Part shown: piece by piece, positions 3,764 through 63,992 of the stretch
Position numbering within the stretch: position 1 is the first letter of the stretch
How the letters are laid out: each line of letters begins with the position of its first letter
Origin: Candidatus Wirthbacteria bacterium
GTDB lineage: Bacteria; Patescibacteriota; CG2-30-54-11
Length of the DNA stretch: 64,000 nucleotides
Direction: 5' to 3'
Assembly: GCA_903889905.1 (NCBI GenBank)
Contig: CAISZI010000046.1
Coordinates: 64,853-128,852 of the forward strand
Translations under genes and position numbers: made by a program
Notes under the pieces: model-generated
What the model was told of the DNA's origin: nothing
Database searches by the model: none
Seen by the model: only the letters and a program-made list of their open reading frames with translations

Positions 3764-5232
3764 AGGCACGCCACAAACTGACCTTGCAACTGGCTGTCAC
3801 GACTTTTGTGTTGATGGCCGCGATGGGCGCCTTATTCACGCTGGTGGCGTATCTGCATGCCACCCAAGCCTATCGCGATTCACTCAAAACCGAAGCCGAT
3901 GACATTGCTGAAGATTACCTCGGCAGTGACGGCAGCCGCATTATTTATCAGGACAAATCTGGCAACCAGACCACGCTCACCAACCATCTGCGCGAGAGCA
4001 ACAGTTCCGCTCTGGTGTTTAATATTAACCATCAGCTGCTGGGCGCTTTTGGCGCTTTTGAGACGGCTATCGAGAACAACCAGCTACCCATCGAGACGGA
4101 TACCAATGCCGTTTCCCTGACCTCACTCAACACGATTTTGGAGCGGGTCATCGCCACCGGCAAATACGAATTCAACAGCCACCTTTATGCCGGCCTGCAT
4201 GAACTGGTCGTGCTCTCCTATCCCATCCAGGCAAGTGGCAAAACCATTGGTGTGCTGCAACTTGGCAAATCATCAACCTTGCTTTCGCAAACACTGGTCA
4301 CGGAGTTGCTGATTTTGCTCTCAGCCCTGCCCTTGGCGCTTTTGCTGAGTGTGCTGGTGGCAGCCTGGCTGAGCCGTTCTGCCTTTGGTCCAATTCATCA
4401 GATGCGGCAGTCGATCAACCAGATCTCCAGTCTAAAAGTTAACAAACACCTGACCCCAAGTGGGCATGAGGATGACGATCTCACACAACTGGCACTGGCC
4501 TTTAATGCCATGATGGACCGATTAAAGCAAAGCAGTGCCAGACAAAAAGACTTTGTCGGTAATGCTTCACATGAACTCAAAACGCCACTGACCAAAGCCA
4601 TCTCCACGCTTGATTTGGCACTCAGCGAAACGCATCATCCCGAGCTGGAACTCGTCAAATCAGACCTGCTGGACATGAACCACCTGATCGAAGCACTCCT
4701 GTTCCTGGCCCACGCCGACGACCTGTCCCTGCAACAACAAAACGGTCCAACCGACCTCAGCAGTGCAATCGATAAAATTCTCCAACGCCTCGCACCAGAC
4801 ATCGAACCCAAACACCTGCAAATCATCACCACGAACATACCCCAGGTCAACATGGCCATGGGCAAGGTGCATCTTGACCTGCTCCTAAGCAATCTGCTTT
4901 CCAATGCCGTCAAATACAGCCTGGCACAAACCGCCATCACTGTCACGGCGATTGTCTCCGCAAACAAACTGCAACTTTCGGTCCAGGACCACGGCATCGG
5001 CATGGACAAAACCACGCTGGATCATGTTTTTGAGCGTTTTTATCGGGCTCCCAAAGCCAAACAGCAATCGGTAGGAAGTGGCCTGGGACTTTCTATTGTC
5101 CAGGCGATTGCCACCGTTTACGGCCTGACACTTCAGGTCGAGTCCACACTTGATCTTGGCACAACCATTACCGTCATGCATATTCCGCTGGCACCAGTTA
5201 CAGCACCCCAGAAAAGCACCCGTTCCACCTGA
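3751..5232 (+). CDS. Sensor histidine kinase (2 TM, HAMP, HisKA, HATPase_c)
   Basis: H-box ASHELKTPLT; HATPase motifs NAVKYS, DHGIGM, GSGLGLSIV. Overlaps the regulator stop by 13 nt. Confidence 0.85.
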   Translation: MSRLKARHKLTLQLAVTTFVLMAAMGALFTLVAYLHATQAYRDSLKTEADDIAEDYLGSDGSRIIYQDKSGNQTTLTNHLRESNSSALVFNINHQLLGAFGAFETAIENNQLPIETDTNAVSLTSLNTILERVIATGKYEFNSHLYAGLHELVVLSYPIQASGKTIGVLQLGKSSTLLSQTLVTELLILLSALPLALLLSVLVAAWLSRSAFGPIHQMRQSINQISSLKVNKHLTPSGHEDDDLTQLALAFNAMMDRLKQSSARQKDFVGNASHELKTPLTKAISTLDLALSETHHPELELVKSDLLDMNHLIEALLFLAHADDLSLQQQNGPTDLSSAIDKILQRLAPDIEPKHLQIITTNIPQVNMAMGKVHLDLLLSNLLSNAVKYSLAQTAITVTAIVSANKLQLSVQDHGIGMDKTTLDHVFERFYRAPKAKQQSVGSGLGLSIVQAIATVYGLTLQVESTLDLGTTITVMHIPLAPVTAPQKSTRST

Positions 5233-5288: not shown

Positions 5289-7151
5289 ATGACCAACAGA
5301 ATTCGCCTCATCATCGCCCTGCTTATCGCCGTCATTCTGGCACTGGTGCCGCTCGTGTATTCCTCGAGTGTCTATCTCGTCTTTGATTTGCCCAAGCTGG
5401 TACTCCTGCAGGCCGGGGTAGAAATTGCGCTGGGCTTGTTTGTTTTTGTGCTGCTTGCTGAGTGGCTGCAGAACAAACCCTGGCAAAAGCCATGGCGTGC
5501 GCTTATCCCGCAAAGGATCGATCTGCTGTGGGTGACGCTGGCCTTTTTTGTGCTTTCCAATGTCTTGGCCGCACTGCTCGCTGCATCGCCGCACCAGGCC
5601 TGGTGGGGAACGTATTACCGCCGGCAGGGTTTATTTTTATTGCTCCACGACGTAGCGCTCATGAGCGTGGCACTAAATTTGGCACGCGACAAAAAGTTGC
5701 TCAAAATCATGCTCGGTGGTGTACTCGCGAGCGCCCTGGGTGTGGTTTTTTATGTTATTCTGGAAATCTTGAACATCCCTGATTACAGCCACTGGAAGTC
5801 CGCCGGTGCTTACGCTGGCAGACTGGTGAGCACGTTTGGCCAACCGGATTTCATGGCGGGCTACCTCGGCATGATCGTACCGCTTATGGCCGGCATCATC
5901 TGGAAAGGCAAGAGCTGGATCAACCTGGTGATCCTGCCTGCTTTAATTTTAACGCTGTATTCCATTTTTGGCAGCCAGTCGCGCGGCGCCTGGTTTTCAC
6001 TGCTGGCCGTGATTCTGATTGCCGGCATGGGTATCGCGCTCACCCGTCGCCAACTCTGGCAAAAAACAACGCTGCTGCTGACGATTGTTGTGCTGACGCT
6101 GGGCGGACTGTTGGGTTTTTATGAAATGTCCAAACGCAACGGCACTGCTTTCCGTGTTGAGGAACTGCTCAGCCCGGCGCGCTGGCAGATGATCGAGCGC
6201 TACCAGATCTGGGACCGCGCCATCGCACTCGTTGCCAACCGTCCGTGGTGGGGCTATGGCCAGGATAATTTTGAACTGGTTTTTCCCTCTATTTTGCGAG
6301 CATCGGATCAACATTTACAAACCGTCTACGTCGACCGCGCCCACAATCTGTTGCTGGACATGCTCGTTTCCAGTGGAGCATGGGGTACGCTGGCGTGGCT
6401 GCTGGTGGTGGGCATGGTGATGGCAACAACCATCAAAACCTGGCGCCGCAAACTATTAAGTGACCAAAACAAAATGCTGGTTGTCGCACTCGGTCTTGGC
6501 ATCTTGTTCTATATCTTTCAAGGCATGGTCAACCTCAACGCCATTGGTCTGGATGCGCTGTTCTGGGTGATGCTGGCACTGCTGGTGGGCATTTGCCATG
6601 CACCAGACGCTATGTTTAATACAACACCAATCGTTGCAGCCACGCCGACCAAACACATTGGCAAAAAGTCGTCCAAGCTAGTCAGGCCTCAACCTCAAAA
6701 AACACTGCCTCCCTGGGCGTTCGCCTTGCTTGCTTTGCTGATCGCCGTGCCGGCCGGTGCTGGCCTCATTCTCAACCTGCACCTTTACCAGGCTGACGCA
6801 GCCTACAAGAACGGACTGCGGGATGAACTTTCGGACAAAGCTGCGGCCGTGGCCGATTATCAGCAAGCCATCGCCCTCCATGCAGAGCAGCCGCTTTACC
6901 GCATCAAACTCGTCGACAACGCGCTGCAGCTTGGCTACAACGCAACCACCGCTGCCGACAAACAGCTTTGGTACCAGGCCGCATACCAAAGCCTCCAGGC
7001 AGGACTCGCCGCCGGTACTGCGCAAGCGGATTTTGATTATCGTTTGGGCGAAACTTATCAGTTTGGCCAGACGCTGGTTGCGGCGGACTGGCAAGCCAAA
7101 GCCAACCAATATTTGCAACAGGCGCACCAGGAAGCACCGTTCAAGTACTGA
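5289..7151 (+). CDS. O-antigen ligase/Wzy_C-family polytopic membrane protein with a C-terminal TPR-like region
   Basis: About 12 TM helices; motif WWGYGQDNFELVF...RAHNLLLDML typical of the O-antigen ligase family; A/Q/Y-rich helical repeats at the C-terminus. Confidence 0.6.
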   Translation: MTNRIRLIIALLIAVILALVPLVYSSSVYLVFDLPKLVLLQAGVEIALGLFVFVLLAEWLQNKPWQKPWRALIPQRIDLLWVTLAFFVLSNVLAALLAASPHQAWWGTYYRRQGLFLLLHDVALMSVALNLARDKKLLKIMLGGVLASALGVVFYVILEILNIPDYSHWKSAGAYAGRLVSTFGQPDFMAGYLGMIVPLMAGIIWKGKSWINLVILPALILTLYSIFGSQSRGAWFSLLAVILIAGMGIALTRRQLWQKTTLLLTIVVLTLGGLLGFYEMSKRNGTAFRVEELLSPARWQMIERYQIWDRAIALVANRPWWGYGQDNFELVFPSILRASDQHLQTVYVDRAHNLLLDMLVSSGAWGTLAWLLVVGMVMATTIKTWRRKLLSDQNKMLVVALGLGILFYIFQGMVNLNAIGLDALFWVMLALLVGICHAPDAMFNTTPIVAATPTKHIGKKSSKLVRPQPQKTLPPWAFALLALLIAVPAGAGLILNLHLYQADAAYKNGLRDELSDKAAAVADYQQAIALHAEQPLYRIKLVDNALQLGYNATTAADKQLWYQAAYQSLQAGLAAGTAQADFDYRLGETYQFGQTLVAADWQAKANQYLQQAHQEAPFKY

Positions 7152-9215: not shown

Positions 9216-10007
9216 CTATACCTTAAGCTCCCGCACCAGTGCCTCAATTCCCTCAAGTTTTTTCCCCTCCGGCAAAGTGTCATACCGATCCAGCATGGCA
9301 CTGCCCACAATCGCCACTTCGGCCAGGGGAGCAATCTGCTCAACCTGCGACCGTTTCTTGATGCCAAACCCAACCGCCAGTGGCAACTGCAAGGTCAACT
9401 TTGTCCGCTCCAGATACGTCACCAATTCCGGATCCAGTGTTTCGCGTGCGCCGGTCACCCCATAAGTTGCAAAACAGTACACAAACCCACGGGCAAACTT
9501 GGCAATCTGCTCCAGTCGCGCTGACGTTGTGGCTGGTGACACAAAGCAGACATTGAGCAAACCGAAACGCTCGGCCGTGGCAAACAACTTTTCCGTCTCT
9601 TCCTCCTGAATCGGCATATCGGGAATCAATAAACCGCTGACACCCGTGGCCGCGGCCTCCGCACAAAACGCTTCCACGCCATAACTGTGCACCAGGTTGA
9701 AATAGCTCATCAGCAGCAGCGGTATCGCAACCGTTTCCCGCAATCTGCGCACCAACGCAAAAGCATCCGCCACTTTGGTCCCGCCAGAGAGCGATAAATC
9801 ATTAGCACGCATCATTGTCGGGCCATCCGCCACCGGATCGGAAAACGGCAGCTGCAGCTCGACAAAATCCGCCCCCGCCCGCGCCATGGCCTGCACAACA
9901 CTGACGTTTGCCTCGAGGCTTGGATAGCCGACAACGACATGGGTCATCAAGCCGGTACATTCGTTGTGTTGCAAGTCATTAAGTTTTTCAATTATCGCAT
10001 TCATCAA
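9216..10007 (-). CDS. trpA: Tryptophan synthase alpha subunit
   Basis: VVGYPSLEANVSVVQAMARAGADFVELQLPFSDPVADGPTMMRAN and the TIM-barrel TrpA core; last gene of the trp operon. Confidence 0.9.
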   Translation of the reverse strand: MMNAIIEKLNDLQHNECTGLMTHVVVGYPSLEANVSVVQAMARAGADFVELQLPFSDPVADGPTMMRANDLSLSGGTKVADAFALVRRLRETVAIPLLLMSYFNLVHSYGVEAFCAEAAATGVSGLLIPDMPIQEEETEKLFATAERFGLLNVCFVSPATTSARLEQIAKFARGFVYCFATYGVTGARETLDPELVTYLERTKLTLQLPLAVGFGIKKRSQVEQIAPLAEVAIVGSAMLDRYDTLPEGKKLEGIEALVRELKV

Positions 10008-10024
10008 TTTCCCTTTCTTAAATC

Positions 10025-10156
10025 ATTGATTGTGCCGGTTGCTTTTGCGCCGAAACAACCGACCGGAGCCATCTCCAAAACTGTCCCTTCGACCGCCTTA
10101 CATATTACTGAACTCAAGTCATTTGTGCAGGCGTAAAAGCAACCGGCACAATCAAT
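10025..10156. repeat. 132-bp element with perfect 22-bp terminal inverted repeats (ATTGATTGTGCCGGTTGCTTTT ... AAAAGCAACCGGCACAATCAAT) in the trpB-trpA spacer
   Basis: Perfect reverse-complement match between 10025-10046 and 10135-10156, extendable to about 27 bp with one mismatch. It occupies what is normally a near-zero trpB-trpA gap. Confidence 0.6.
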
Positions 10157-10170
10157 CCCTCTTGTAATCT

Positions 10171-11415
10171 TCATAAAGCCGCCCGCTTCAAAAATGCTTT
10201 CCATTTCTCATCCCCCAGCGCCTCGGCCACGATAAAAATGTCCTTATCCCCGCGGCCCGACAGGTTGACCACAATGCTTTGTGATGACGATAGCGTAGGC
10301 GCCAGTTTAATGGCTTCGGCCACCGCGTGCGCGGATTCAAGCGCCGGGATAATGCCTTCGGTTTTGATTAAAGTTTTCAGTGCAGCCAGAACTTCGATGT
10401 CCGTGGCATAATGCATAACCAGTCGTCCACGGCTGTGCATATAGGCAAGCTGCGGGCCAACTCCAGCATAATCCAGTCCTGCCGAGACACTGTGCGTGGG
10501 TTGAATCTGTCCTTCGCTGTCCTGCAAAAACAAAGATTTATAGCCCTCGACCACGCCTGGCCGGCCGGCCCCAAAACGAACCGCGTGCTCACCGACCTTG
10601 GTGACGCCGCGGCCACCGGCTTCCACCCCAATCAAGTGGACAGCGCTGTCGTCCAGAAAAGCATTGAACAAGCCCATGGCATTGCTGCCGCCGCCGACAC
10701 AAGCGACCAGATAGTCCGGTTTGTCGACGCCATACTCCTTGAGCTGCTCCCGTACCTCGAGCCCGACGATACTTTGGAAATCACGGTTCATGGAGGGAAA
10801 CGGATGTGGCCCAAGGCATGAGCCCAGCAGATAATGCGTGTCACGCACTGTGGCAATCCAGTCTTTAATCGCGGCGTTAACGGCGTCTTTGAGTGTGCGT
10901 GATCCAAATTCCACCGACCGCACCTCAGCCCCAAGCTGCTCCATCCAGAACACGTTGGGCCGTTGCCGCGCAATATCCACCTCACCCATAAAGATTGTGC
11001 ATTCAAACCCGAATTTAGCCGCCACCGTGGCTGTCGCTAGACCGTGTTGGCCCGCACCGGTTTCGGCGATCAGACGTTTTTTGCCCATGCGTTTGGCCAA
11101 GAGTGCCTGGCCCAGTGCATGGTTGATTTTGTGCGCACCGGTATGGTTGAGGCCTTCGTTTTTGATAAAAATTCTGGCACCACCCAGCTGTCGGGTTAAA
11201 TTCTCGGCAAAGTAGAGCGGCGTGGGCCGGCCGGAAAAATGCTGAAACAAATCCAACAATTCTCGCTCAAAATTCGCATCCTGTCGTGCCACGTTGTAAG
11301 CGCCATTCAATTCCTGCAACGCGGGATAAAGCATCTCGGGCACATACTGCCCGCCAAACGGTCCAAAGTGCCCGCCTGCATCCGCATCAAATGTCGTGGG
11401 GAAAAAAAGTTTCAT
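10171..11415 (-). CDS. trpB: Tryptophan synthase beta subunit (PLP-dependent)
   Basis: HTGAHKINHALGQALLAKRMGKKRLIAETGAGQHG and GGGSNAMGLF motifs; 414 aa. Confidence 0.95.
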   Translation of the reverse strand: MKLFFPTTFDADAGGHFGPFGGQYVPEMLYPALQELNGAYNVARQDANFERELLDLFQHFSGRPTPLYFAENLTRQLGGARIFIKNEGLNHTGAHKINHALGQALLAKRMGKKRLIAETGAGQHGLATATVAAKFGFECTIFMGEVDIARQRPNVFWMEQLGAEVRSVEFGSRTLKDAVNAAIKDWIATVRDTHYLLGSCLGPHPFPSMNRDFQSIVGLEVREQLKEYGVDKPDYLVACVGGGSNAMGLFNAFLDDSAVHLIGVEAGGRGVTKVGEHAVRFGAGRPGVVEGYKSLFLQDSEGQIQPTHSVSAGLDYAGVGPQLAYMHSRGRLVMHYATDIEVLAALKTLIKTEGIIPALESAHAVAEAIKLAPTLSSSQSIVVNLSGRGDKDIFIVAEALGDEKWKAFLKRAAL

Positions 11416-11875: not shown

Positions 11876-12520
11876 TTAAACAACCGCTTTGGCTGTCCGA
11901 ATGAACTGTCGAATAAGCTCGTTATCTTTAATCCCGCGACTGCTTTCCACGCCGCTCGAAACATCGACGATGTCCGGATGAATCGTTGCGATCGCCGCTT
12001 GCACATTGCCTGGGTTCAGGCCGCCCGCAAGGATAATGGGTTTGCCATAGCGTTTGATTCCGTGCGCCAAAGTCCAAGCAAACGTTGTGCCAGTGCCGCC
12101 GGTTTTTCCGTCAATTTGTGTGTCCAGATGGATGCCGTCAACTTCGTCAACAAAAGATTTCACGCGCTGCACAAGATCTTCACTCCCCACGCCAAATGAC
12201 TTCCAGACAAGCAGACCAGCAGCACGCAGCAGCCGACAATCTTCAGGACTTTGACGACCCTGAAGTTGAACTCCATCCAGATGAGCGCTCTGAGCAATGG
12301 CCAGAACTTCGGCAGCTTTTTGCTCCACAAAAACACCCATTAACTTGATGTTACTGCGATCCTCCTCCAACGCGTTCACTAGTGGAATCAATGCACACAC
12401 TTCCACTGATCGCGGCGACGATGGCACATTTACCACAAACCCAAGGAACTCTGCCCCCGCCGCTACCGCCGTTTGTGCCGTCACCAAATCCCGGATGCCA
12501 CAAATTTTTACTAGGGTCAT
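11876..12520 (-). CDS. trpF: Phosphoribosylanthranilate isomerase
   Basis: MTLVKICGIRDLVTAQTAVAAGAEFLGFVV...; start overlaps the trpD::trpC stop by 4 nt. Confidence 0.85.
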   Translation of the reverse strand: MTLVKICGIRDLVTAQTAVAAGAEFLGFVVNVPSSPRSVEVCALIPLVNALEEDRSNIKLMGVFVEQKAAEVLAIAQSAHLDGVQLQGRQSPEDCRLLRAAGLLVWKSFGVGSEDLVQRVKSFVDEVDGIHLDTQIDGKTGGTGTTFAWTLAHGIKRYGKPIILAGGLNPGNVQAAIATIHPDIVDVSSGVESSRGIKDNELIRQFIRTAKAVV

Positions 12521-14508
12521 TTCTTTTTCCTTTTACCTGTATCTTTTCCGTCATTCTGAGCGGAGCGAAGAATCCTTACTGCGCGCGGACCAAAAGTCAG
12601 TTGGTCATTGTGGTGTAGATCGCTCGCCAAGCCTCGGGATGACAATTGAGAAGACTTCTCTATCCCCATTAACTCCGCAATCTTCTCCCCCGCATCCCGA
12701 CTTACCATCAAACTCGTCCCCACCAGCACCGCCTTGGCGCCAGCCTTTTGTAAACGCACCACATCCTCCCGGCTTTCCACCGCTGACTCCGCCACCAATA
12801 AACAGTCGCTTGGCACCAATCCGGCCAATTTCTCAACGCTGGCCAAATCCGTTTGCATGGTGCTGAGATCACGCGCATTAATCCCGATTATTTTCGCCCC
12901 AAGTTTGACCGCGCGATCAATTTCTACAGCTGTATGTGTTTCGACCAGCACCTCCATGCTAAGCTGTACGGCCACGGCCATTAATTCCTTCAATGGGTCA
13001 TCTTCCAACATCGCCACGATCAACAAAATAGCATCCGCACCATACAGCCTGGCTTCATAAATCTGATAGGCATCAACCATGAAATCTTTTTGTAAAACCG
13101 GAAGTTGAACCGCCGCCCGCACTGCTTCAAGGTCTGCCAGGCTTCCCCCAAAGTAACGCCCATCCGTCAGAACAGAAATGGCCTCGGCACCGGCTTTGGC
13201 ATAGGTCTGTGCCAGCGCCGTCACGTCAAAAGTCTCCTGCAAGACGCCGCGCGATGGCGACTGCCGCTTGATCTCGGCAATCAGTGCCATCGCACTAGAC
13301 TGGCTCTGCAAGGCAGACAACAGGCTTCGTTTTACCAGCGGCAAATCTTTGACCTTTTCTTTGATCTGCGCCAAAGATACTTGCTGTTTACGAACCTCAA
13401 CTTCGACACGTTTATGAGCAAAAATTTCATTTAACAGATTTTCTCTTACCCCCTTTATAAAGGGGGCAGGGGGATTTTTCAGTTTTCCCGTCTTTATTCT
13501 TTGACTCTTCTCCCTCAACTCTTCCACTTTCTCCATCGCCTTACCACTTCCTATCATCTCCTCAGCCATTTTTACTCCTTCTACCAAACTGCTCACCTTA
13601 CCAGCCACCAACAGCCCCGCCGCTGCATTGGCGAGCACAAAGTCGCGTTTGGGGCCCGTTTCCGTACCATTCAAAATAGACCGCAAGATCGTGGCGTTCA
13701 TTTGTGCGTCACCACCAACAAGTGCATCAAGCGGTGCTTGAACCAGACCAAAATCAGCTGGTGAAACAGAATATGTCGTTACTTTTCCATCCTGCAATGC
13801 ACTCACCTGCGTTACACCATGCACCGCGACCTCATCAAGTCCACTCCCATGCACCACCATCGCTCGTTTGGTGCCAAGCTCCATAAGCACACGCGCTAAC
13901 GGCTCCGTCAGTTCAGGAGAATAGACACCGATCAACTGATATTCCGCCCCAGCCGGGTTGCTTAAGGGCCCCAGCACATTAAAAATCGTGCGCATGCCCA
14001 ATGCTTTCCGTGCTGGCATGACATGTTTGACGCCTGGGTGAAAGGCCGGTGCAAACATAAACCCAATCCCAACCTCCCGCAAACAGTCTTCGACTGCATC
14101 TGGTTTGAGGTCTACGGCAATACCCAACGCTTCCAGCACGTCAGCACTGCCCGAGCGGCTCGAAAGCGCCCGGTTCCCATGCTTGGCAACTTTCACGCCA
14201 GCGGCAGCCAGGATGAAGGCGGCGGTGGTCGAAACATTGAACGTTTGAGCTCCATCGCCACCCGTGCCACAGCAATCCAACACCGGAAAATCAACGTTAA
14301 CTTTTGCCGCATGTTCCCGCATCACCCGCGCCAAGGCAGCAATTTCTGCAATAGTTTCGCCCTTTTGTCTCAGTCCCATCAGCAGCGCCCCGATCTGGGC
14401 ATCGCTGCCTTCACCGTTCATCAGGCTGTGCATCATACCCTCGGCTTCTGCGCGCGACAAATCCTGACCAGCTCCAAGTTTGTGTAAAACCGATGTTATA
14501 TTATCCAT
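12517..14508 (-). CDS. trpD-trpC: Fused anthranilate phosphoribosyltransferase and indole-3-glycerol-phosphate synthase (TrpD::TrpC), with a linker and a 45-aa basic C-terminal tail encoded by hairpin repeats
   Basis: N-terminal half is TrpD (GTGGDG, KHGNRALSSRSGSADVLEALG). C-terminal half is TrpC (ENLLNEIFAHKRVEV..., IAEIKRQSPSRG). The linker KLKNPPAPFIKGV is encoded by the perfect palindrome CCCCCTTTATAAAGGGGG at 13449-13466. The tail ...RSAQNDGKDTGKRKKK is encoded by 12520-12660, including GTCATTCTGAGCGGAGCGAAGAATCC. Confidence 0.85.
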   Translation of the reverse strand: MDNITSVLHKLGAGQDLSRAEAEGMMHSLMNGEGSDAQIGALLMGLRQKGETIAEIAALARVMREHAAKVNVDFPVLDCCGTGGDGAQTFNVSTTAAFILAAAGVKVAKHGNRALSSRSGSADVLEALGIAVDLKPDAVEDCLREVGIGFMFAPAFHPGVKHVMPARKALGMRTIFNVLGPLSNPAGAEYQLIGVYSPELTEPLARVLMELGTKRAMVVHGSGLDEVAVHGVTQVSALQDGKVTTYSVSPADFGLVQAPLDALVGGDAQMNATILRSILNGTETGPKRDFVLANAAAGLLVAGKVSSLVEGVKMAEEMIGSGKAMEKVEELREKSQRIKTGKLKNPPAPFIKGVRENLLNEIFAHKRVEVEVRKQQVSLAQIKEKVKDLPLVKRSLLSALQSQSSAMALIAEIKRQSPSRGVLQETFDVTALAQTYAKAGAEAISVLTDGRYFGGSLADLEAVRAAVQLPVLQKDFMVDAYQIYEARLYGADAILLIVAMLEDDPLKELMAVAVQLSMEVLVETHTAVEIDRAVKLGAKIIGINARDLSTMQTDLASVEKLAGLVPSDCLLVAESAVESREDVVRLQKAGAKAVLVGTSLMVSRDAGEKIAELMGIEKSSQLSSRGLASDLHHNDQLTFGPRAVRILRSAQNDGKDTGKRKKK

Positions 14509-14509
14509 C

Positions 14510-15094
14510 TCATTTCCCCTTGCACTGCAAAAAATTCGTCACCATCTGTTTGCCCACTTCCGTGCCAATCGATTCGGGATGAAACTGGATGCCTTCGATC
14601 GGGAACTGCCGATGCCGCAGTCCCATGATCAATCCGTCCTCGGTTTCTGCCGAAACCTCCAGTACCCCCGGCAACGACGACCGCTCCACCAGGAGCGAAT
14701 GGTAGCGCATGCCCAAAAAAGGATTTTCAATGCCGGCAAAAATACCCTGGCCGTCGTGACGGATCAAACTCTGTTTGCCGTGCAGAGCAATTGGCGCGCG
14801 CACCACATTGCCCCCAAAAATCGCCCCAATCCCCTGATGCCCGAGGCAAACGCCCAGCAGTGGTATCGTTTTACCCATTGCCAAAATCACTTCGCGGCAC
14901 ACCCCAAAGTAATGCGCATCCCGCGGATCTCCGGGCCCTGGTGAAATCACAATATGCGAAGGCATCAATAGCTGCGCTTCCTCCAGGCTGATCTGGTCGT
15001 TACGAAAAACCACCGGATTCCCACCCAGCTCACCAATGATCTGATAGAGGTTGTAGGTAAACGAATCGTAGTTGTCGATGATAAGCGTTTTCAT
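14510..15094 (-). CDS. trpG: Anthranilate synthase component II (glutamine amidotransferase)
   Basis: MKTLIIDNYDSFTYNLYQ..; catalytic GVCLGHQ; start overlaps the trpE stop (ATGA). Confidence 0.9.
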   Translation of the reverse strand: MKTLIIDNYDSFTYNLYQIIGELGGNPVVFRNDQISLEEAQLLMPSHIVISPGPGDPRDAHYFGVCREVILAMGKTIPLLGVCLGHQGIGAIFGGNVVRAPIALHGKQSLIRHDGQGIFAGIENPFLGMRYHSLLVERSSLPGVLEVSAETEDGLIMGLRHRQFPIEGIQFHPESIGTEVGKQMVTNFLQCKGK

Positions 15095-16665
15095 GGTTTG
15101 TCCTTTCTGTCATCGCGAGAAAGAGAACTCACCCTACCCTCTCTTTGGTAAAGAGAGGGTAAATGCATTACCCCCTTCCCTTTACTATAGGCCTTAGTCC
15201 CGTAAGGGGGAAGGGCTGGGGATGAGTTCATCTTTGCCAACTTCAGCGCCGCCTCCATTCCCCTCGCCTTGCGTTCAATTTCCTCCGCTTCCTGCTCTGG
15301 CGTCGAATCCTGCACCACGCCACTACCGACCTGGCTATAGGCTTTATCTCCCACGATAAACAAACTGCGCAGGCCGACCGAAAAAATACATTCCCCATTT
15401 AAACCAAACCCGCCAATTTCCCCGGCATACGGTCCACGCGGTGCTTTTTCCAAAGCGTGGATAATTTTCATGGCTTCAATTTTGGGCGCTCCCGATACCG
15501 TTCCCATGGGCGAAGCTGCACTAACGCAGTCAAACTGATTGAGTTCACTCCGCAACGTTCCCTTGAGTTTGCTTTCCATGTGCTGGACATGTGAAAAACG
15601 TTTGGGCACCATCAGTTCATCCACTTTGACCGACCCGAATTCACACACGCGCCCGAGGTCATTGCGGCCCAGATCGACGAGCATCATATGTTCGGCGCGT
15701 TCCTTGGCATTGGCGCGCATCGCGTCAAACAGAACTTCGTCCTCAGATGGTATCTGCCCACGCAAGGTGGTGCCGGCGAGGGGGAAATTCTCTACCACAA
15801 ACTGCTTCTGCGCATTGCGTCGCACCCTTGAAACCAAGTCCACGCTCGAGGTGATGATTTCTCGCTGGCCGAATTTGATATAAGACAAATAGGGCGATGG
15901 ATTGACCTGCCGCAAGGCATCATAAATGCGGCGTTTGTCACCCTGCAGTTCATAACCATACTGCACGGCCAGCACTACCTGAAAGATATCGCCCGCCGCA
16001 ATATGCTCTTTGGCTGTGTGGATCATTTGCAGGTATTCGTCCTGGGTTGTATTGCTGCCCAGTGCAGTAAAACCAAAAGTTCCAAACGTGGCAGGTGGGC
16101 CTGCGATCAGCGCGTCAACCCGTTTTCGGCGGTCGGCGCCAACCGTGAAGTAGCTGAGTTCGTGAAGCTGTTTGTCATAGACAATTCCATCCAAAAACAG
16201 TCCCAACTCAAACGCCGGGAAGTCTGGATGCTCACCAAACTCAACCGCTGGCTCAAAGTACTCAGTTGCTTCATAACCCAGATAGCCATACAACCCACCG
16301 GCGTAACCACTCCTGGGCAAAAGATGTGTCTGGATTTCCCGCAACGCATCATAAGGGTTGGCGCACTCCATCGATTTACCATCAACGATCAGCTGCCTGC
16401 CGCGCGCACTGACCATCTGCTCAGGCTCAAACATCAGCACCGAATAGCGCGAAAAGTCACTGTACTCGCCCAGGGACTCCAGAAATATCACGTGCTCAAA
16501 CTGGGCATAAGCACGCAAGAAGAGTTCGTAGATATCAATCTCAGACGGAATAACCTGTGCATGAAACTTGAGTGGAGGAATGTGAAAATAAGACATGGCG
16601 TGCCTGGCTAATGAATAAATTGCTGCATTAGCGTCGCCAATAGTGCCTTTTGTTTGTTTTGACAA
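15091..16665 (-). CDS. trpE: Anthranilate synthase component I with a non-canonical 45-aa C-terminal extension
   Basis: Chorismate-binding core (FLESLG..., GAPK, SGVVQDS). TTG start at 16665 preceded by GGGGAG; alternative ATG at 16596. The last 45 aa (...KGKGVMHLPSLYQREGRVSSLSRDDRKDKP) are encoded by hairpin-rich DNA at 15100-15240. Confidence 0.9.
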   Translation of the reverse strand: MSKQTKGTIGDANAAIYSLARHAMSYFHIPPLKFHAQVIPSEIDIYELFLRAYAQFEHVIFLESLGEYSDFSRYSVLMFEPEQMVSARGRQLIVDGKSMECANPYDALREIQTHLLPRSGYAGGLYGYLGYEATEYFEPAVEFGEHPDFPAFELGLFLDGIVYDKQLHELSYFTVGADRRKRVDALIAGPPATFGTFGFTALGSNTTQDEYLQMIHTAKEHIAAGDIFQVVLAVQYGYELQGDKRRIYDALRQVNPSPYLSYIKFGQREIITSSVDLVSRVRRNAQKQFVVENFPLAGTTLRGQIPSEDEVLFDAMRANAKERAEHMMLVDLGRNDLGRVCEFGSVKVDELMVPKRFSHVQHMESKLKGTLRSELNQFDCVSAASPMGTVSGAPKIEAMKIIHALEKAPRGPYAGEIGGFGLNGECIFSVGLRSLFIVGDKAYSQVGSGVVQDSTPEQEAEEIERKARGMEAALKLAKMNSSPALPPYGTKAYSKGKGVMHLPSLYQREGRVSSLSRDDRKDKP

Positions 16666-16995
16666 AAATCATCGCTGCTCCCCAAAAATTTAGACAACAA
16701 AAAACCTCTCGCCCTGGGTCCACGCAAAATCGTGAATCCAAAGGACGAGAGGTTTCTCTCATGGTGCCACCTTGCTTTACTGCTTTGCTCGCAAAACAGT
16801 TACTCTTCTCGACAGCGCTCCGCCGATTCGGCGGATGAACTGTCTAGCCTGTGATAACGGAGGCGGCCGTTTCGGCATTTTGCCGAGGTTATCCTTGGTC
16901 CATTCATTTGCGGATTGTGATGAAGCTTTCAGTCCGGGGCTTCACTTCCTGTTTCTAACCCGATGCAAATTACTCTACCAAGGAAAAGAACAATT
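16666..16995 (-). promoter_or_regulatory. T-box riboswitch leader of the trp operon (Trp specifier UGG; T-box AGGUGGCACC; long terminator hairpin)
   Basis: Minus-strand RNA reads ...AAUGAAUGGACC (UGG at 16900-16902) ... AAGCAAGGUGGCACCAUGAGAGAAACCUCUCGUCC ... GGGCGAGAGGUUUUUUGUUGU. The T-box element is at 16763-16772 with UGGC complementary to a GCCA acceptor end. A 12+9 bp interrupted hairpin followed by a U-run lies at 16701-16760, just upstream of the trpE RBS. Confidence 0.55.
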
Positions 16996-21827: not shown

Positions 21828-23860
21828 TGAGTGATCAACCCAACAACGCGATTCCTCCCAAACAACCTCCTCGCCGCATGGGCGGTCCCATGGGTGGCAT
21901 GGGTGGCCCCATGGGCGGCATGATGGGCGGCGCCAAAGCCAAAAATTTCAAAGGAACTTTGGGCAAACTGGTGCAATACATGCGTCCTTTCTGGATCTCG
22001 ATTATCATCGTCATTGTTTTCGCCATCCTCAGCACTGTCTTCAGCATCATGAGCCCCAAAATCCTGGGCAACATGACCAACCAGGTCGTCAGTGACTACA
22101 TCAATATGACCGTCTATGACCAAACCATGGCCCGCCTGCCTGCAGGCACGACGCTTGCTCCCGGCACCACTGGCGCCCAGATTCTCAAAAGTGCACCCGC
22201 GGCGGCGTTGCAAAAAATCCCAGCTGATCAACTTGCCAAAATTCAATCCTTGGATTTTAGCCACCGTCCAGGCGTCAACTTTGACACCCTGGGCAAGACT
22301 GCCATGTTGCTCCTGTTCTTGTATGCCTTGAGTGCGATCTTCAGCTACATACAGGGTTGGATCATGACCAGTGTGTCGCAAAAAATCACCTACCAGTTCC
22401 GCACCGACATTGCCGCCAAAATCAACCGCCTGCCACTCAAATTCTATGATTCCAAAACCCATGGCGAAATCCTCAGTCGCGTCACCAACGACGTCGACAC
22501 CGTCAGCCAAACCCTCAACCAGAGCCTGTCGCAGATCGTCACTTCAGTGACCATGCTGGTCGGCATCCTGGTGATGATGTTCTCGATCAGTTTCTGGATG
22601 ACTCTGGTCGCGTTACTGGTGCTGCCACTTAGCATGGGTTTTATTACCACCATTGTCAAAAAGTCCCAGGGCTATTTCAAACAGCAACAGGAATCGCTGG
22701 GGAATATCAATGGCCATATCGAAGAAATGTATTCGGGCCATAATGTGATGAAAGTCTTTAACGGTGAAGCGCGCTCCATCGCCAAATTCAGCACGATCAA
22801 CGATGAACTCTTTGTCAGCGGCTGGAAATCACAGTTTCTCTCTGGCCTGATGTTCCCGATCATGAACTTCATTGGCAACCTCGGCTATATCGGGATTGCG
22901 GTACTGGGCGGTTACCTCGCTATCAACGGTAAACTGCAGATCGGCGATATCCAGGCTTTTATCCAGTACATGCGCCAGTTCAACCAGCCCATTGCCCAGA
23001 CCGCCAATATTGCCAACGTCATGCAATCCACCGCCGCTGCCGCCGAACATGTGTTTGAATTCCTGGCCGAAACCGATGAAATCCCCGAAGCTGCAAATCC
23101 TAAATCCTTGGGACAGGTTCAAGGAACCGTGGAATTCAACCACGTTGTCTTTGGCTACAATGCTGACAAGACCATCATCCACGACTTCACGGCCAAAGTC
23201 GCACCCGGCCAGCGTATCGCCATTGTCGGGCCCACCGGCGCTGGCAAAACCACCATGGTCAATCTGCTCATGCGTTTCTATGACGTCAGTAGCGGTGCAA
23301 TCAAAATTGACGGCATTGATATCCGCGACCTGAAGCGTGCCGATGTGCGCAAATGCTTTGGCATGGTGCTGCAGGACACCTGGCTGTTCAATGGCACCAT
23401 CCGCGACAACATTGCCTACGGCAAACCCGACGCCACCGAAGCCGAAATCCTGAGCGCCGCCAAGGCTGCCCAGGTCGACCACTTCGTCAACTCGCTTCCC
23501 AAAGGTTACGACCTCGAACTCAATGAAGAAGCCGATAATATCTCACAAGGTGAAAAACAGCTACTGACCATTGCTCGTGCCATGCTCGCCAAGACGCCCA
23601 TGCTTATCCTGGACGAAGCCACCAGTTCGGTCGACACCCGAACCGAAGTCCTCATCCAAAAAGCCATGGACAACCTGATGAAAGGCAAAACCTGCTTTGT
23701 CATTGCCCATCGTCTCAGCACCATCCGCGACGCCGACCTGATCCTGGTCATGGACCATGGCAACATCGTTGAACAGGGCTCACACACGCAACTCCTGGCC
23801 CAAAACGGCTTCTATGCCAATTTGTACAACAGCCAGTTCGCCGGTTCGGACGCAGCATAA
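21827..23860 (+). CDS. ABC exporter half-transporter (likely heterodimer partner) with an N-terminal (GGPMG)n Met/Gly repeat
   Basis: Walker A GPTGAGKTT, signature ISQGEKQLLTIAR, Walker B LILDEA. The N-terminus MGGPMGGMGGPMGGMMGG is encoded by a tandem DNA repeat at 21878-21933. Start overlaps the upstream stop by 1 nt. Confidence 0.85.
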   Translation: MSDQPNNAIPPKQPPRRMGGPMGGMGGPMGGMMGGAKAKNFKGTLGKLVQYMRPFWISIIIVIVFAILSTVFSIMSPKILGNMTNQVVSDYINMTVYDQTMARLPAGTTLAPGTTGAQILKSAPAAALQKIPADQLAKIQSLDFSHRPGVNFDTLGKTAMLLLFLYALSAIFSYIQGWIMTSVSQKITYQFRTDIAAKINRLPLKFYDSKTHGEILSRVTNDVDTVSQTLNQSLSQIVTSVTMLVGILVMMFSISFWMTLVALLVLPLSMGFITTIVKKSQGYFKQQQESLGNINGHIEEMYSGHNVMKVFNGEARSIAKFSTINDELFVSGWKSQFLSGLMFPIMNFIGNLGYIGIAVLGGYLAINGKLQIGDIQAFIQYMRQFNQPIAQTANIANVMQSTAAAAEHVFEFLAETDEIPEAANPKSLGQVQGTVEFNHVVFGYNADKTIIHDFTAKVAPGQRIAIVGPTGAGKTTMVNLLMRFYDVSSGAIKIDGIDIRDLKRADVRKCFGMVLQDTWLFNGTIRDNIAYGKPDATEAEILSAAKAAQVDHFVNSLPKGYDLELNEEADNISQGEKQLLTIARAMLAKTPMLILDEATSSVDTRTEVLIQKAMDNLMKGKTCFVIAHRLSTIRDADLILVMDHGNIVEQGSHTQLLAQNGFYANLYNSQFAGSDAA

Positions 23861-24468: not shown

Positions 24469-24514
24469 GTGTAAAAACACCGTTAAAGTAATCTTTTACT
24501 CTACTCCAACGGGC

Positions 24515-24678
24515 GGGTTGAAAATTTAGCAAGGAGTCACGCATGAGTCACCGCTTAGCCAGTGGCAATGAACCGCCAAGTTGAGCGAGCCAACTATCTA
24601 ACCAAGGTCGTGCCAAACGCAACTACCTTCGAGTCAAACCTCGGGATCGGATTTGACTCCTTGCTAATTTTTCAACCC
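24515..24678. repeat. 164-bp element bounded by 25-bp imperfect inverted repeats (GGGTTGAAAATTTAGCAAGGAGTCA ... TGACTCCTTGCTAATTTTTCAACCC); MITE-like or a structured RNA
   Basis: 24/25 reverse-complementary termini enclose about 112 bp with internal stems (AGTTG..CAACT). Lies between the hypothetical secreted gene and the response-regulator gene. Confidence 0.5.
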
Positions 24679-24731
24679 ACTCGTCCCAACCATTAAGTTT
24701 TTTCTAAGCATTTACGAGGTATACTCCATTC

Positions 24732-25406
24732 ATGAAAATACTCATTATCGAAGACGAACACAAGATCGCGCAAGCACTCAAGGAAGGCCTCGAGCAGGAA
24801 TCCTTCGCCGTGGACGTGCGCTTTGACGGCGAGGCCGGACTCCAGGCTGGGTTGTTTGACGACTACGACCTGATCCTGCTGGACGTGATGCTGCCCAAGC
24901 GCGATGGCATGGAAGTTTGCCGCGAGCTGCGCCAAAACAATATTCACACGCCAATTCTAATGCTCACTGCCCGCGACCAGAATCGCGACATCATCCAAGG
25001 CCTGAACCAGGGAGCCGACGATTATTTGCCCAAACCATTTTCCTTTGAAGTCCTGCTTGCCCGCATCCGGGCGCTCCTCCGCCGCCCGCACGAAGCCATC
25101 TCTACCGTACTCAAAGTGGCTGACCTCAGCCTCGATACCGTGACCAAGGAAGTGAAGCGCGCTGGCAAACCGATCAAACTGTCGGCCAAGGAATTTGCCT
25201 TGCTGGAGTACCTGATGCGTAGCCAAGGCAAAGTGCTGACCAAAAACAACATCCTCACCCACGTCTGGGATTTTGACGCCGATGTGCTGCCCAACAATCT
25301 AGAAGTGTTTATCTCTTACTTACGCGCCAAAGTGGATAAACCTTTTAAAAAATCACTCATCCACACCGTCCACGGCTTTGGTTACAAACTGGGAGAATCG
25401 GCATGA
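24732..25406 (+). CDS. OmpR-family response regulator
   Basis: MKILIIEDEHKIAQAL...DLILLDVMLPKRDGMEV...LTAR; winged-helix C-terminus. Confidence 0.85.
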   Translation: MKILIIEDEHKIAQALKEGLEQESFAVDVRFDGEAGLQAGLFDDYDLILLDVMLPKRDGMEVCRELRQNNIHTPILMLTARDQNRDIIQGLNQGADDYLPKPFSFEVLLARIRALLRRPHEAISTVLKVADLSLDTVTKEVKRAGKPIKLSAKEFALLEYLMRSQGKVLTKNNILTHVWDFDADVLPNNLEVFISYLRAKVDKPFKKSLIHTVHGFGYKLGESA

Positions 25407-35116: not shown

Positions 35117-35719
35117 ATGAAAAAATCGCTCAAAACCTATCTAACCGCCGGCGCCATTGTCGCCGTTGTCGGACTCGTCGGGACAGCGGGTGCGCTCACC
35201 GTCGCCCATGCGGCCACGACGACCAATTCCACTGTCTCCAATTTCATCTCCCAGGTAGCCACCAAAATCGGCATCAGCAGCGACAAGCTGCAGGCCGCGG
35301 TGGATTCGACCCGGACTGACATTCAGACGCAAACCCTGAGCACGGCTGTCACTAGTGGCAAAATGACTCAGGCCCAGGCCGACGTCTTGCAAAAAATTGA
35401 AACCTATCGCCAGACCGAACAGTCGACTGAAACTGCCGCTGCGCGTCAGACCGAAATGACTGCCCGCAAAACCGCCATGGATGCTTTGCCGAGCACGGCC
35501 ACACCAACGGAACGCCAGGCAGCCATGCAAAAAATCGAGGATCAAAACAACCAGACCATGGCAACAGCCCTGGGCATTGATATTTCAACCATTAACGATG
35601 CGCTCACAGCAGCCAAAACGGCTGGTATCGGCGGCCCAGGCATGGGTGGTCGCGGCATGGGCGGTGGGCGTGGTGGCATGCACGAAGGCGGCATGGGCAT
35701 GAGGGGTGGTGGATTCTAA
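35117..35719 (+). CDS. Secreted protein with a Q/T/A-rich helical region and a Met/Gly-rich C-terminus (GGPGMGGRGMGGGRGGMHEGGMGMRGGGF); possible Cu(I)/metal-binding periplasmic protein
   Basis: RBS AAGGTG then ATG at 35117; signal peptide MKKSLKTYLTAGAIVAVVGLVGTAGALTVAHA; Met-rich tail next to the copper operon. Confidence 0.5.
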   Translation: MKKSLKTYLTAGAIVAVVGLVGTAGALTVAHAATTTNSTVSNFISQVATKIGISSDKLQAAVDSTRTDIQTQTLSTAVTSGKMTQAQADVLQKIETYRQTEQSTETAAARQTEMTARKTAMDALPSTATPTERQAAMQKIEDQNNQTMATALGIDISTINDALTAAKTAGIGGPGMGGRGMGGGRGGMHEGGMGMRGGGF

Positions 35720-60863: not shown

Positions 60864-61018
60864 AAATCAACCTACTTAAATATTTATTTTTAGCTAAATT
60901 CATTTACTATGATAACAAAAATTAAGTACAAAACAACTGGCATCTTCCTCAAACACCCTTTCTACCGCTTTCTCGATAATGAACGGAATGAATGGTTTAA
61001 AACTCACGAATACAGAAA

Positions 61019-61042
61019 AAGATGGCGTCATGACGCCATCTT
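61019..61042. repeat. Copy A of a repeat family containing the perfect 24-bp palindrome AAGATGGCGTCATGACGCCATCTT
   Basis: Exact palindrome. About 30 bp of its upstream flank (GGTTTAAAACTCACGAATACAGAAAAA) and a downstream block GGTGGGCCATCTGTCCCAAAACTGGAACACCGTG (61118-61151) are shared with copy B. Lies about 156 bp upstream of the 60863 gene start. Confidence 0.7.
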
Positions 61043-62183: not shown

Positions 62184-62356
62184 TTATTCCTATAAATAAG
62201 AAGAATATTTAGTCTTTAATTATATAATAAAATATTTATTTATCAATACCGGAAGTTAAAAAAACTAGTACAAAAAACCTCGCCCACCCTTTGATGGCTT
62301 TAATACGCCATTTCGTCTAGACTTTGGACAAGTGGCTTAAATTCTCAAAAACAAAA

Positions 62357-62380
62357 AAGATGGCGTCATGACGCCATCTT
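62357..62380. repeat. Copy B of the 24-bp palindrome repeat family
   Basis: Same exact palindrome. About 110 bp from 62300 are similar to copy C. The downstream block GGTGGACCAGCTGTCCCAAAACTGGAACACCGTG lies at 62527-62560. Lies about 174 bp upstream of the 62183 gene start. Confidence 0.7.
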
Positions 62381-62622
62381 TTGCCAATGTACTGCTTTCC
62401 CTTCCGTTCCGAGGACGGAACTTCAGGGACCCCAATGAATAAGTACTTCTAAACGCGAGGACTTGTTAAGCAGTACTTTATAAATTTCATCTAAGTTCGA
62501 AGACTCACTAAGATTCTCTTTATGGTGGACCAGCTGTCCCAAAACTGGAACACCGTGCTAACCTGTTTATCCCGATTATCCAACACAATTAGTTACTGTT
62601 TGCCTGGAATGACGGAATCGCG

Positions 62623-63830: not shown

Positions 63831-63876
63831 GTCAATCAATTGACATATAAAGTACTTTATATGTCAATTGATTGAC
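63831..63876. promoter_or_regulatory. Perfect 46-bp palindrome (GTCAATCAATTGACATATAAAGTAC|GTACTTTATATGTCAATTGATTGAC) overlapping the -35 region of the DUF4143 ATPase gene
   Basis: Exact reverse-complement symmetry over 46 nt; contains TTGACA on both strands. Positioned 33-78 bp upstream of the ATG at 63798. Confidence 0.8.
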
Positions 63877-63968
63877 GGCCTCCTAAAAAACTCGAACACC
63901 ATATCATGGCTTCACAACGCCATTCTGATACAATTTCGGACAGGTGGTTAAAATCCCTCAAACACAAA

Positions 63969-63992
63969 AAGATGGCGTCATGACGCCATCTT
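63969..63992. repeat. Copy C of the 24-bp palindrome repeat family (at the window edge)
   Basis: Same palindrome plus a roughly 70 bp upstream flank similar to copy B. About 171 bp upstream of the 63798 gene start. Confidence 0.7.

Follow-up and report, generated by a model that had tools for sequence, protein, structure and literature searches.

Structure-forming repeats at the junctions of a Candidatus Wirthbacteria trp operon, probably absorbed into its open reading frames

The window analyzed here is a 64-kb stretch (64,000 nucleotides) of contig CAISZI010000046.1 from Candidatus Wirthbacteria bacterium. It holds a trp operon whose reading frames carry additional segments at the end of TrpE (insert a), between TrpD and TrpC (insert b) and at the end of TrpC (insert c). 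We consider it probable that the junctions of this operon were colonized by structure-forming repeats of the intergenic type, which were later absorbed into open reading frames (ORFs), and that the copies that survived were those that preserved translational coupling. The inserts belong to repeat families found in other genomes, lie at the ancestral ends of the proteins, are absent from homologues and are open to the next start codon; in the predicted structure of the fused protein, low confidence is confined to the inserts. An initial annotation of this DNA had treated the three segments as in-frame insertions of related hairpin repeats. Our results showed that they derive from two different families: the GTCAT module, in insert (c), and triplex motifs, in inserts (a) and (b).

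The operon lies on the minus strand, and its genes were assigned with NCBIfam and Pfam profiles (Table 1). They are tightly packed, with ATGA overlaps at trpE/trpG and trpC/trpF and a TGAgATG arrangement at trpG/trpD. Every sequence quoted in the initial annotation was found on this coding strand.

Table 1. Position of the trp genes, control elements, inserts and repeat motifs in the window
Feature	Position	Strand	Remarks
Promoter-like sequence	17026-16998	minus	TTGACC-17-TATAAT; precedes the T-box leader
Trp-specific T-box leader	16995-16738	minus	specifier GAA-UGG-A; matches the full length of the model
trpE	16665-15091	minus	ORF as listed, 524 aa from the first possible start, TTG; catalytic core ends at residues 474-479
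TrpE extension, 46 codons (MNSSPALPPY...RKDKP)	15094..15231	minus	ends in ATGA overlap with trpG (15091-15094)
Triplex motif a1	15173..15226	plus, antisense to trpE	CCCTTCCCTTTAC...GTAAGGGGGAAGGG-CT-GGGGATGAG; 7/10 class II triads valid
Triplex motif a2	15126..15159	minus, sense	CCCTCTCTTT-ACC-AAAGAGAGGG-TA-GGGTGAGTT; 9/10 class II triads valid
Isolated 11-nt 'foot' like that of the GTCAT module	15109..15119	plus	GTCATCGCGAG; 3' edge of insert (a)
trpG	15094-14510	minus	
trpD-trpC fused ORF, 663 aa	14508-12517	minus	TrpD about residues 1-340, TrpC about residues 356-618
Interdomain linker, residues 341-355	13444..13488	minus	KLKNPPAPFIKGVR...
Triplex motif b, 28 nt	13449..13476	plus, antisense	CCCCCTTTA-TAAAGGGGG-CA-GGGGGATT; 8/8 class II triads valid
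TrpC C-terminal tail, 45 codons, residues 619-663	12520..12654	minus	ends in ATGA overlap with trpF (12517-12520)
GTCAT-module doublet, 94 nt, inverted	12550..12643	both	
trpF	12520-11876	minus	
trpB	11415-10171	minus	
Relay ORF, 56 codons, across the hairpin	10004..10174	minus	ATG overlaps trpB stop (ATGA), TGA overlaps trpA ATG (TGATG)
Near-perfect hairpin, 132 nt, trpB-trpA spacer	10025..10156		arms 10025-10068 / 10113-10156
trpA	10007/10004-9216	minus	

The NCBIfam and Pfam profiles place the end of the TrpE core at residues 474-479, and in the PDB the chains of TrpE and PabB stop at 474-478; the extension is therefore real, and it comprises 46 codons (15231..15094) rather than the 45 first proposed. 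In this insert, TACCCTCTCTTT-ACC-AAAGAGAGGGTA forms a perfect hairpin, and the predicted fold of the whole has an energy of -55 kcal/mol (z = -3.5). Its hairpins, like that of insert (b), proved to be intrastrand triplex motifs of class II, similar in kind to BoxC/PIT/TM. Insert (a) is an inverted pair of such motifs, a1 and a2, closed by the outer stem GAACTCATCC/GGGTGAGTTC. The first loop of a1 is long (24 nt). In a2, AAA replaces GGG in the duplex and TT replaces GGG in the third strand, so that the third strand covaries with the duplex. The foot GTCATCGCGAG is possibly a half-module of the GTCAT type, and its resemblance is weak. The proposed relationship between the motifs of (a) and (c) came down to this shared 11-nt foot (GTCATnnnGAG). 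On the 5' side of insert (a), a degenerate foot, CTCATCCCCAG, consists of the very bases of the a1 third strand and for that reason was not counted.

The tail encoded by insert (c) had been given as 45 residues long, and it begins where the TrpC homologues stop (median 618). It contains GTCATTCTGAGCGGAGCGAAGAATCC (12550-12575) and is built on a doublet of the GTCAT module. The intact right arm, GTCATTCTGAGCGGAGCGAAGAATC (12550-12574, plus strand), agrees with the module pattern at 25 of 25 positions. The inverted left arm, GTCATCCCGAG-GCTTGG-CGAGCGATC (12618-12643, minus strand), is degenerate, and because of this decay the insert folds no better than shuffled sequences (z = -0.3). The tail ends in the basic residues KRKKK. 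A Pfam search of the tail peptides gave no match.

Insert (b) is located at the trpD-trpC junction. When stand-alone homologues were mapped onto the fusion, TrpD proteins (n = 109) ended at a median of residue 340 (range 334-347), and TrpC proteins (n = 113) started at residue 356/357, their median end being 618. The 18-nt palindrome CCCCCTTTATAAAGGGGG (13449-13466), with AATCCCCCTG just before it, encodes residues 345-354 and fills the gap between the two, in agreement with the earlier statement that it spans the junction; the fold of this segment has z = -3.1. The family pattern of motif b is AAATCCCCCTNCCCCCTTT-loop-AAAGGGGG. An AlphaFold2 model of TrpD-TrpC, built from 20 sequences, had a mean predicted local distance difference test (pLDDT) score of 87, with values below 50 in residues 343-356 (the linker) and 619-663 (the tail) and nowhere else.

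TrpD-TrpC fusions are frequent in other organisms, with linkers of very variable length, and our first conclusion was that this one had simply been inherited from a widespread fused family. We dropped it after searching with each domain separately. With the TrpC domain, the best 120 matches were all proteins other than TrpD-TrpC; it scored a median of 230 bits and 48% identity against stand-alone TrpC, versus 188 bits and 43% against the TrpC domains of other fusions. With the TrpD domain, searched against 1.84 billion representatives, the best matches were mostly stand-alone TrpD or TrpG-TrpD. The fusion is therefore likely to be lineage-specific.

A fourth structured element occupies the trpB-trpA spacer. 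It is a hairpin with a perfect outer stem of 22 bp (-66.5 kcal/mol, z = -7.4), and it is crossed by a relay ORF whose ends overlap the trpB stop and the trpA start. We considered whether this hairpin belongs to a repeat family and rejected it: it had no matches in IMG/VR, and three metagenome matches were chance ones that lacked the partner arm. The peptide of the relay ORF found no homologue besides itself.

On the coding strand, the frame that is used is the only one free of stops through (a) and through (c), the other frames having 2-5 stops. Composition-matched shuffles were stop-free in 7.9% of cases for (a) and 6.2% for (c). Every structured insert of the operon, including the trpB-trpA hairpin, is in a frame open to the next start codon. 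This is not a property of the GTCAT family, and the idea that it is intrinsically stop-free, like the Rickettsia palindromic elements (RPEs), was rejected: its doublets have 2.0 open frames of six, versus 1.9 in shuffles. In the family, TGA usually closes the frame that (c) uses, G|TCA|TYC|YGA, which a left arm of the CCC type leaves open in this case.

Alignment with orthologs, as had been suggested, identified the three segments as lineage-specific additions absent from homologues. The TrpC tail was present in none of the 19 aligned fused homologues and was covered by none of the best 120 TrpC matches. The nearest relatives in the collections searched are only 44-54% identical. The expected additional copies were absent from the 64-kb window, in which the 22-nt and 26-nt motifs occur once each; the evidence that they are not random comes from other genomes.

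To locate triplex motifs we used a finder with 8-nt stems and one mismatch allowed. Within the window it returned exactly a1, a2 and b, and it returned none in 30 Markov-random sequences. The published BoxC/PIT/TMECO pattern is CCCTCNCCC N3-6 GGGNGAGGG N3 GGGNGAGGG (Holder et al., 2015, PMC4666352). TMECO forms a class II (purine-motif) intrastrand triplex and was reported in 3610 copies from 262 proteobacterial genomes; in E. coli K-12 it is always intergenic, shows no strand bias, forms five inverted pairs and occupies hypervariable loci (PMC4666352). The 16-mer GAGAGGGTAGGGTGAG of a2 is common to this family. Compared with the TMECO consensus, CCCTCTC...GAGAGGG-TA-GGGTGAG of a2 matches, but a2 has TTT/AAA/TT as outer triplets and a second loop of 2 nt; b and a1 are different sequence variants. 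In the triad test (G.G:C, A.A:T, T.A:T), a2 and b obey the class II rule, and a1 does so in only 7 of 10 triads.

The a2 16-mer occurs in 42 IMG/VR contigs, against about 30 expected by chance according to our estimate, and in about 36 of these a matching CCCTCTCCC hairpin lies upstream. Relatives of motif b were found in ten IMG/VR contigs, nine of which keep GGGGGATT although its ATT is outside the search pattern. The motifs of the window share with TM sequences a C-rich stem, a loop, a G-rich stem, a short loop and a second G-rich strand with valid purine-motif triads, as well as the occurrence in inverted pairs (insert a) and the association of the family with variable junction DNA. They differ in several respects. 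All three are inside ORFs, at ancestral gene ends, unlike the motifs of E. coli K-12; a2 and b are variants with an A/T extension, which have AAA in the duplex and TT in the third strand; the first loop of a1 has 24 nt instead of 3-6; and the published survey placed TMECO in Proteobacteria only.

The GTCAT module has 25 nt and the general form GTC-ATNNN-GA-GC-GNA-GC-GA-N'N'N'AT-C. The pattern GTCATYCYGAGCGNAGCGARGRATC was found at at least 120 loci in IMG/VR viral contigs and at at least 120 loci in GTDB contigs (one genome per species), the latter from at least 20 phylum-level groups; by our estimate, the chance expectation for such a pattern is far below 1 in either collection. The GTDB matches listed come from Acidobacteriota, Chloroflexota, Nitrospirota, Planctomycetota, Gemmatimonadota, Bacteroidota, Firmicutes, several proteobacterial classes, Verrucomicrobiota, Omnitrophota, Ignavibacteria, Bdellovibrionota, three lineages of the candidate phyla radiation and one Nanoarchaeota metagenome-assembled genome.

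Covariation was scanned with the pattern GTCATNNNGAGCGNAGCGANNNATC, which leaves six positions free. The triplets were complementary in 153 of the 162 distinct matches listed, in ten combinations, and the middle base of the apex was free. Stem cells were paired in 97.7% of cases versus 87.4% in shuffles, and the covariation score was 0.322 versus 0.106; none of 500 shuffles was as high in either measure. One stem pair was seen as UA, CG, GC and AU. Judging from these alignments the module is a hairpin, because its triplets covary as complements, and it comprises five Watson-Crick pairs, a tandem G.A/A.G and two G-C pairs that close a GNA triloop. The GCGNAGC apex corresponds to the 'extraordinarily stable mini-hairpin' of DNA (PMC13037366), and the apex AGCGNAGCG also occurs in enterobacterial REP sequences (PMC2817692).

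For 41 of the 137 matches listed, an inverted partner lay at a distance of 43-220 nt, the remaining 96 being singlets; doublets form long palindromes or three-way structures. About two thirds of the modules in the matches listed are intergenic. They have no bias with respect to the direction of the flanking genes (58 vs 56), are rare in divergent spacers (8) and are common where the flanking genes are convergent or in tandem. The ORF calls made for these loci were crude, and several ORFs through modules are clearly spurious high-GC frames.

Neither the window nor 12 loci that contain good doublets gave a gathering-level Rfam match. Sub-threshold Rfam matches on a doublet locus were mostly to models of miRNA precursors, and we did not take the module for a known RNA family. 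A hammerhead ribozyme was set aside on inspection, as the junction strands of the three-way variants misfit the hammerhead core. A linked homing endonuclease of the GIY-YIG type was rejected as a general association as well: a GIY-YIG-like motif occurred within 600 nt of a module in only one of 308 loci. A search of the searchable literature with DNA words and peptides returned unrelated primers or nothing for the module.

The module also enters proteins outside the window. Peptides of the HSERSEES/SAQNDG type, mentioned in the initial annotation as possible spurious products of metagenome assemblies, are indeed translations of the GTCAT module, and long ORFs, both spurious and real, cross it in other contigs. 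Real proteins with in-frame module tails were found at loci L013 and L110; a phage portal-like protein ends in ...EILRFAQNDGENEEDES, and a protease-like protein has ...KIPRFARND.... Because real proteins elsewhere bear module-derived tails, the window is one instance of something general. An orthologous phage gene junction in IMG/VR contigs is a bare ATGA overlap in one locus (L114) and is filled in L022, L063, L078, L090 and L030 by a singlet or a doublet followed by a new ribosome-binding site; a third form of the junction has a quite different, unrelated repeat as filler.

Some further observations concern the modules in other contigs. The phage junction constitutes a natural empty/filled series for the module (L114 vs L022, L063, L078, L090, L023, L030, L084, L017 and L115). 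In two loci (L208, about 5459-5484; L235, about 4351-4376) the module end ...CTCAGGATGAC can itself provide the ATGA stop/start overlap: the upstream frame ends in ...DPSLRSG* and an ORF begins at the ATG, several of the upstream ORFs being probably spurious. In three others (L044, about 6937-7010; L152; L168) GTCAT modules adjoin triplex motifs, and triplex motifs also occur as tandem pairs. These mosaic arrays of modules and triplex motifs recall BIMEs.

By analogy, the GTCAT module looks like a single-strand hairpin of the REP/REPIN type. Its 25 nt form an imperfect palindrome in which the 5' tetranucleotide is conserved and the stem covaries (compare Nunvar et al., 2010, PMC2817692), and like REPs and BIMEs it occurs as singlets and inverted doublets that are mostly extragenic, at the 3' ends of genes. 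Unlike REPs, it begins with an invariant GTCA and not with GT[AG]G; the published table of REPs shows GTAG or TGTGG (PMC2817692). It also differs from species-specific REPs in being nearly unchanged across at least 20 phylum-level groups and viral contigs, a spread that argues against species specificity.

The comparison with Rickettsia palindromic elements made in the initial annotation is apt for the phenomenon, the in-frame insertion of repeats. RPEs, together with ERIC and BOX, are counted among the intragenic repeats resembling MITEs, which are miniature transposable elements with inverted repeats (review PMC10969869; Ogata et al., 2000, as cited there). As in RPEs, short palindromic repeats lie in frame in unrelated metabolic genes and add a peptide that the fold tolerates (PMC10969869); here the frames are open, low pLDDT is restricted to the inserts and the domains are intact. 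RPEs are described as about 100-150 bp long, confined to Rickettsia and with a conserved peptide per family, which sets them apart. The elements of this operon are, unlike RPEs, pan-bacterial, mostly intergenic and not intrinsically stop-free, and they are found only at gene ends or linkers, never inside domains. Compared with MITEs, insert (c) and the trpB-trpA hairpin both have inverted arms, and a target duplication is visible at neither. In-frame insertion of repeats is itself already known, and this is a clear but not unprecedented case.

Translational coupling at overlapping stop and start codons is established for trp operons: in E. coli it links trpE to trpD and trpB to trpA, through UGAUG. 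The present operon resembles this arrangement in its ATGA or TGATG overlaps at trpE/trpG, trpC/trpF and the start of trpA. It differs in that the upstream frames cross 94-138 nt of inserted repeat before they reach the overlaps, and in that the trpB-trpA junction is crossed by a separate relay ORF.

We propose that repeats would have reached intercistronic junctions, which are their usual habitat. The arrivals would have been an inverted triplex pair after trpE, a single triplex motif at the trpD-trpC junction, a GTCAT doublet after trpC and an unrelated hairpin in the trpB-trpA spacer. Wherever an insert put an in-frame stop before the next cistron, or a stable structure that was not translated, coupling would have been broken and the insert lost; for this reason the survivors would be translated, being the copies that ribosomes could read through to the old ATGA or TGATG overlap. 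The disordered TrpE and TrpC tails and the relay mini-ORF would be by-products of this process. At one junction the trpD stop would have been lost or bypassed, giving the TrpD-TrpC fusion with the motif as its linker. For the repeats themselves, a spread as selfish or neutral DNA is probable.

Several points weigh against this proposal. The signal that the tails would be translated is their open frames, and the statistics on those frames are post hoc. The contig is metagenome-assembled, and repeats can be error-prone sites in assembly. Coupling is argued by analogy, from what is generally known of trp operons rather than from this organism. As the collections searched contain no close relative, the best being 49-54% identical, the operon offers no empty site, exact boundary or target duplication; an empty/filled comparison for it is absent from our data, and the analogous pair is in phage contigs. 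Neither family has a further copy in the window that would speak for repetition within the genome. Finally, the hairpin of insert (c) is degraded (z = -0.3) and may no longer matter as a structure.

Other explanations were weighed against the same data. The inserts may instead have been kept for an action in cis, as structures at cistron boundaries that make mRNA stability, processing or ribosome pausing differ between cistrons, or through recombination at triplex or hairpin DNA. This would be compatible with colonization of the junctions, and we regard it as rather unlikely to be the main reason for their retention. It would account for the presence of four or five structured elements at the junctions of a single 7.5-kb operon, when the two families are absent from the other 56 kb or so, for the very stable folds that insert (a) and the trpB-trpA hairpin still have, and for the covariation of the a2 third strand with its duplex. 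TM loci are, moreover, hypervariable in E. coli (PMC4666352). The ability of REP elements to stabilize upstream mRNA also speaks for such a role. It agrees less well with the lack of gene-orientation bias in both families, one by our own count and the other as published (PMC4666352), or with the earlier work cited in PMC4666352, in which PIT/TM had neither promoter nor terminator activity; two of the three triplex motifs here are antisense to the mRNA, and the doublet of (c) is structurally decayed. That the tails and the linker are ordinary, maybe functional, lineage-specific segments with a coincidental likeness to repeats is very improbable. Homologues do show variable linkers and short tails, and the basic KRKKK end could be functional, but coincidence would have to explain a complete match to the module of hundreds of unrelated contigs and the location of the sole three triplex motifs of 64 kb in precisely these segments, with none in random controls, in addition to the low pLDDT and the lack of Pfam matches in the tails. 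Only slightly less improbable is an artefact of assembly or sequencing, in which mis-joined repeats or indels would mimic in-frame read-through. The source, a 129-kb metagenomic contig, and the error-prone nature of palindromic repeats favor it; however, at four independent sites the frame is perfectly kept, the downstream genes are intact and the stop/start overlaps with them are precise, and errors would be expected to break frames rather than to keep them.

The initial annotation had also suggested that an inserted element fused trpD and trpC. The unfused state of the best domain homologues and the exactly filled gap agree with this. That insertion of motif b produced the fusion is plausible, though we consider it less likely than not. 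The route would be an insert free of stops and 3n+1 nt long, placed immediately upstream of an ATGA overlap, which would shift the trpD frame into the trpC frame and bypass the TGA. The 28 nt of motif b are of this length by our own boundaries, and the neighboring junctions of the operon are ATGA or TGAnATG; the median scores given above place the TrpC domain nearer to stand-alone TrpC than to fused TrpC, and the best TrpD matches are mostly unfused. On the other hand, fusions that lack the motif are common and very diverse in linker length, no leftover ATG or stop codon is visible, the 28-nt length depends on insert boundaries that are not fixed, and the reverse order, fusion first and motif b later into the linker, fits equally well. 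Beyond this operon, a wider proposal about the GTCAT module is more doubtful still: it would be an undescribed pan-prokaryotic, phage-borne structured element of very broad-range spread which, together with the triplex motifs, prefers cistron junctions, where selection for coupling would force such elements into open frames and make them a general source of tails, relay mini-ORFs, linkers and fusions such as TrpD-TrpC.

Other features of the operon and the window were recorded. Upstream of trpE, the T-box leader, which follows a strong promoter-like sequence, scored 68 bits, below the gathering score of 93, with E = 9e-15, and a terminator stem of the leader lies at 16702-16755; its sequence suggests that the operon is probably controlled by uncharged tRNA-Trp. 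Between trpF and trpB there is an ORF of 141 aa (11855-11430, minus strand) that matches an ACT domain only weakly (PF19571, E = 7e-4) and whose predicted product could be a regulatory or ligand-binding subunit. At 24509-24684, directly upstream of a gene at 24732, there is a strongly structured intergenic element with 31-nt arms 114 nt apart (-75.6 kcal/mol, z = -7.1) and no gathering-level Rfam match; it could be MITE-like or a structured RNA. The perfect palindrome AAAAGATGGCGTCATGACGCCATCTTTT is present in three copies (61017-61042, 62355-62382 and 63967-63992) within repeated segments of 43-116 nt spaced by 1338 and 1612 nt, which look like shared terminators of tandem paralogous genes. 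A perfect palindrome of 46 nt (GTCAATCAATTGACATATAAAGT / ACTTTATATGTCAATTGATTGAC; 63831-63876), of which 59690 and 63812 have related copies, is possibly an operator-like site. Short repeats of the GGCATGGGCGG type occur in two separate genes (21871-21934 and 35650-35680) and would encode a Gly/Met-rich peptide.

The trp operon described here provides a concrete and well-delimited example of how intergenic repeats may become protein sequence, in the form of disordered tails and a linker that possibly caused a gene fusion, and it suggests a simple selective filter, the keeping of translational coupling. Judged by their reading frames, BoxC/PIT/TM triplex motifs can be translated, although those of E. 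coli K-12 were reported to be intergenic in every case. The 25-nt hairpin module is very widespread and shows clear covariation, yet it is absent from Rfam and was not found in the searchable literature. For annotation, such modules explain the recurrent peptides ...RILRSAQNDG... and ...HSERSEES... in both real and spurious metagenome proteins.

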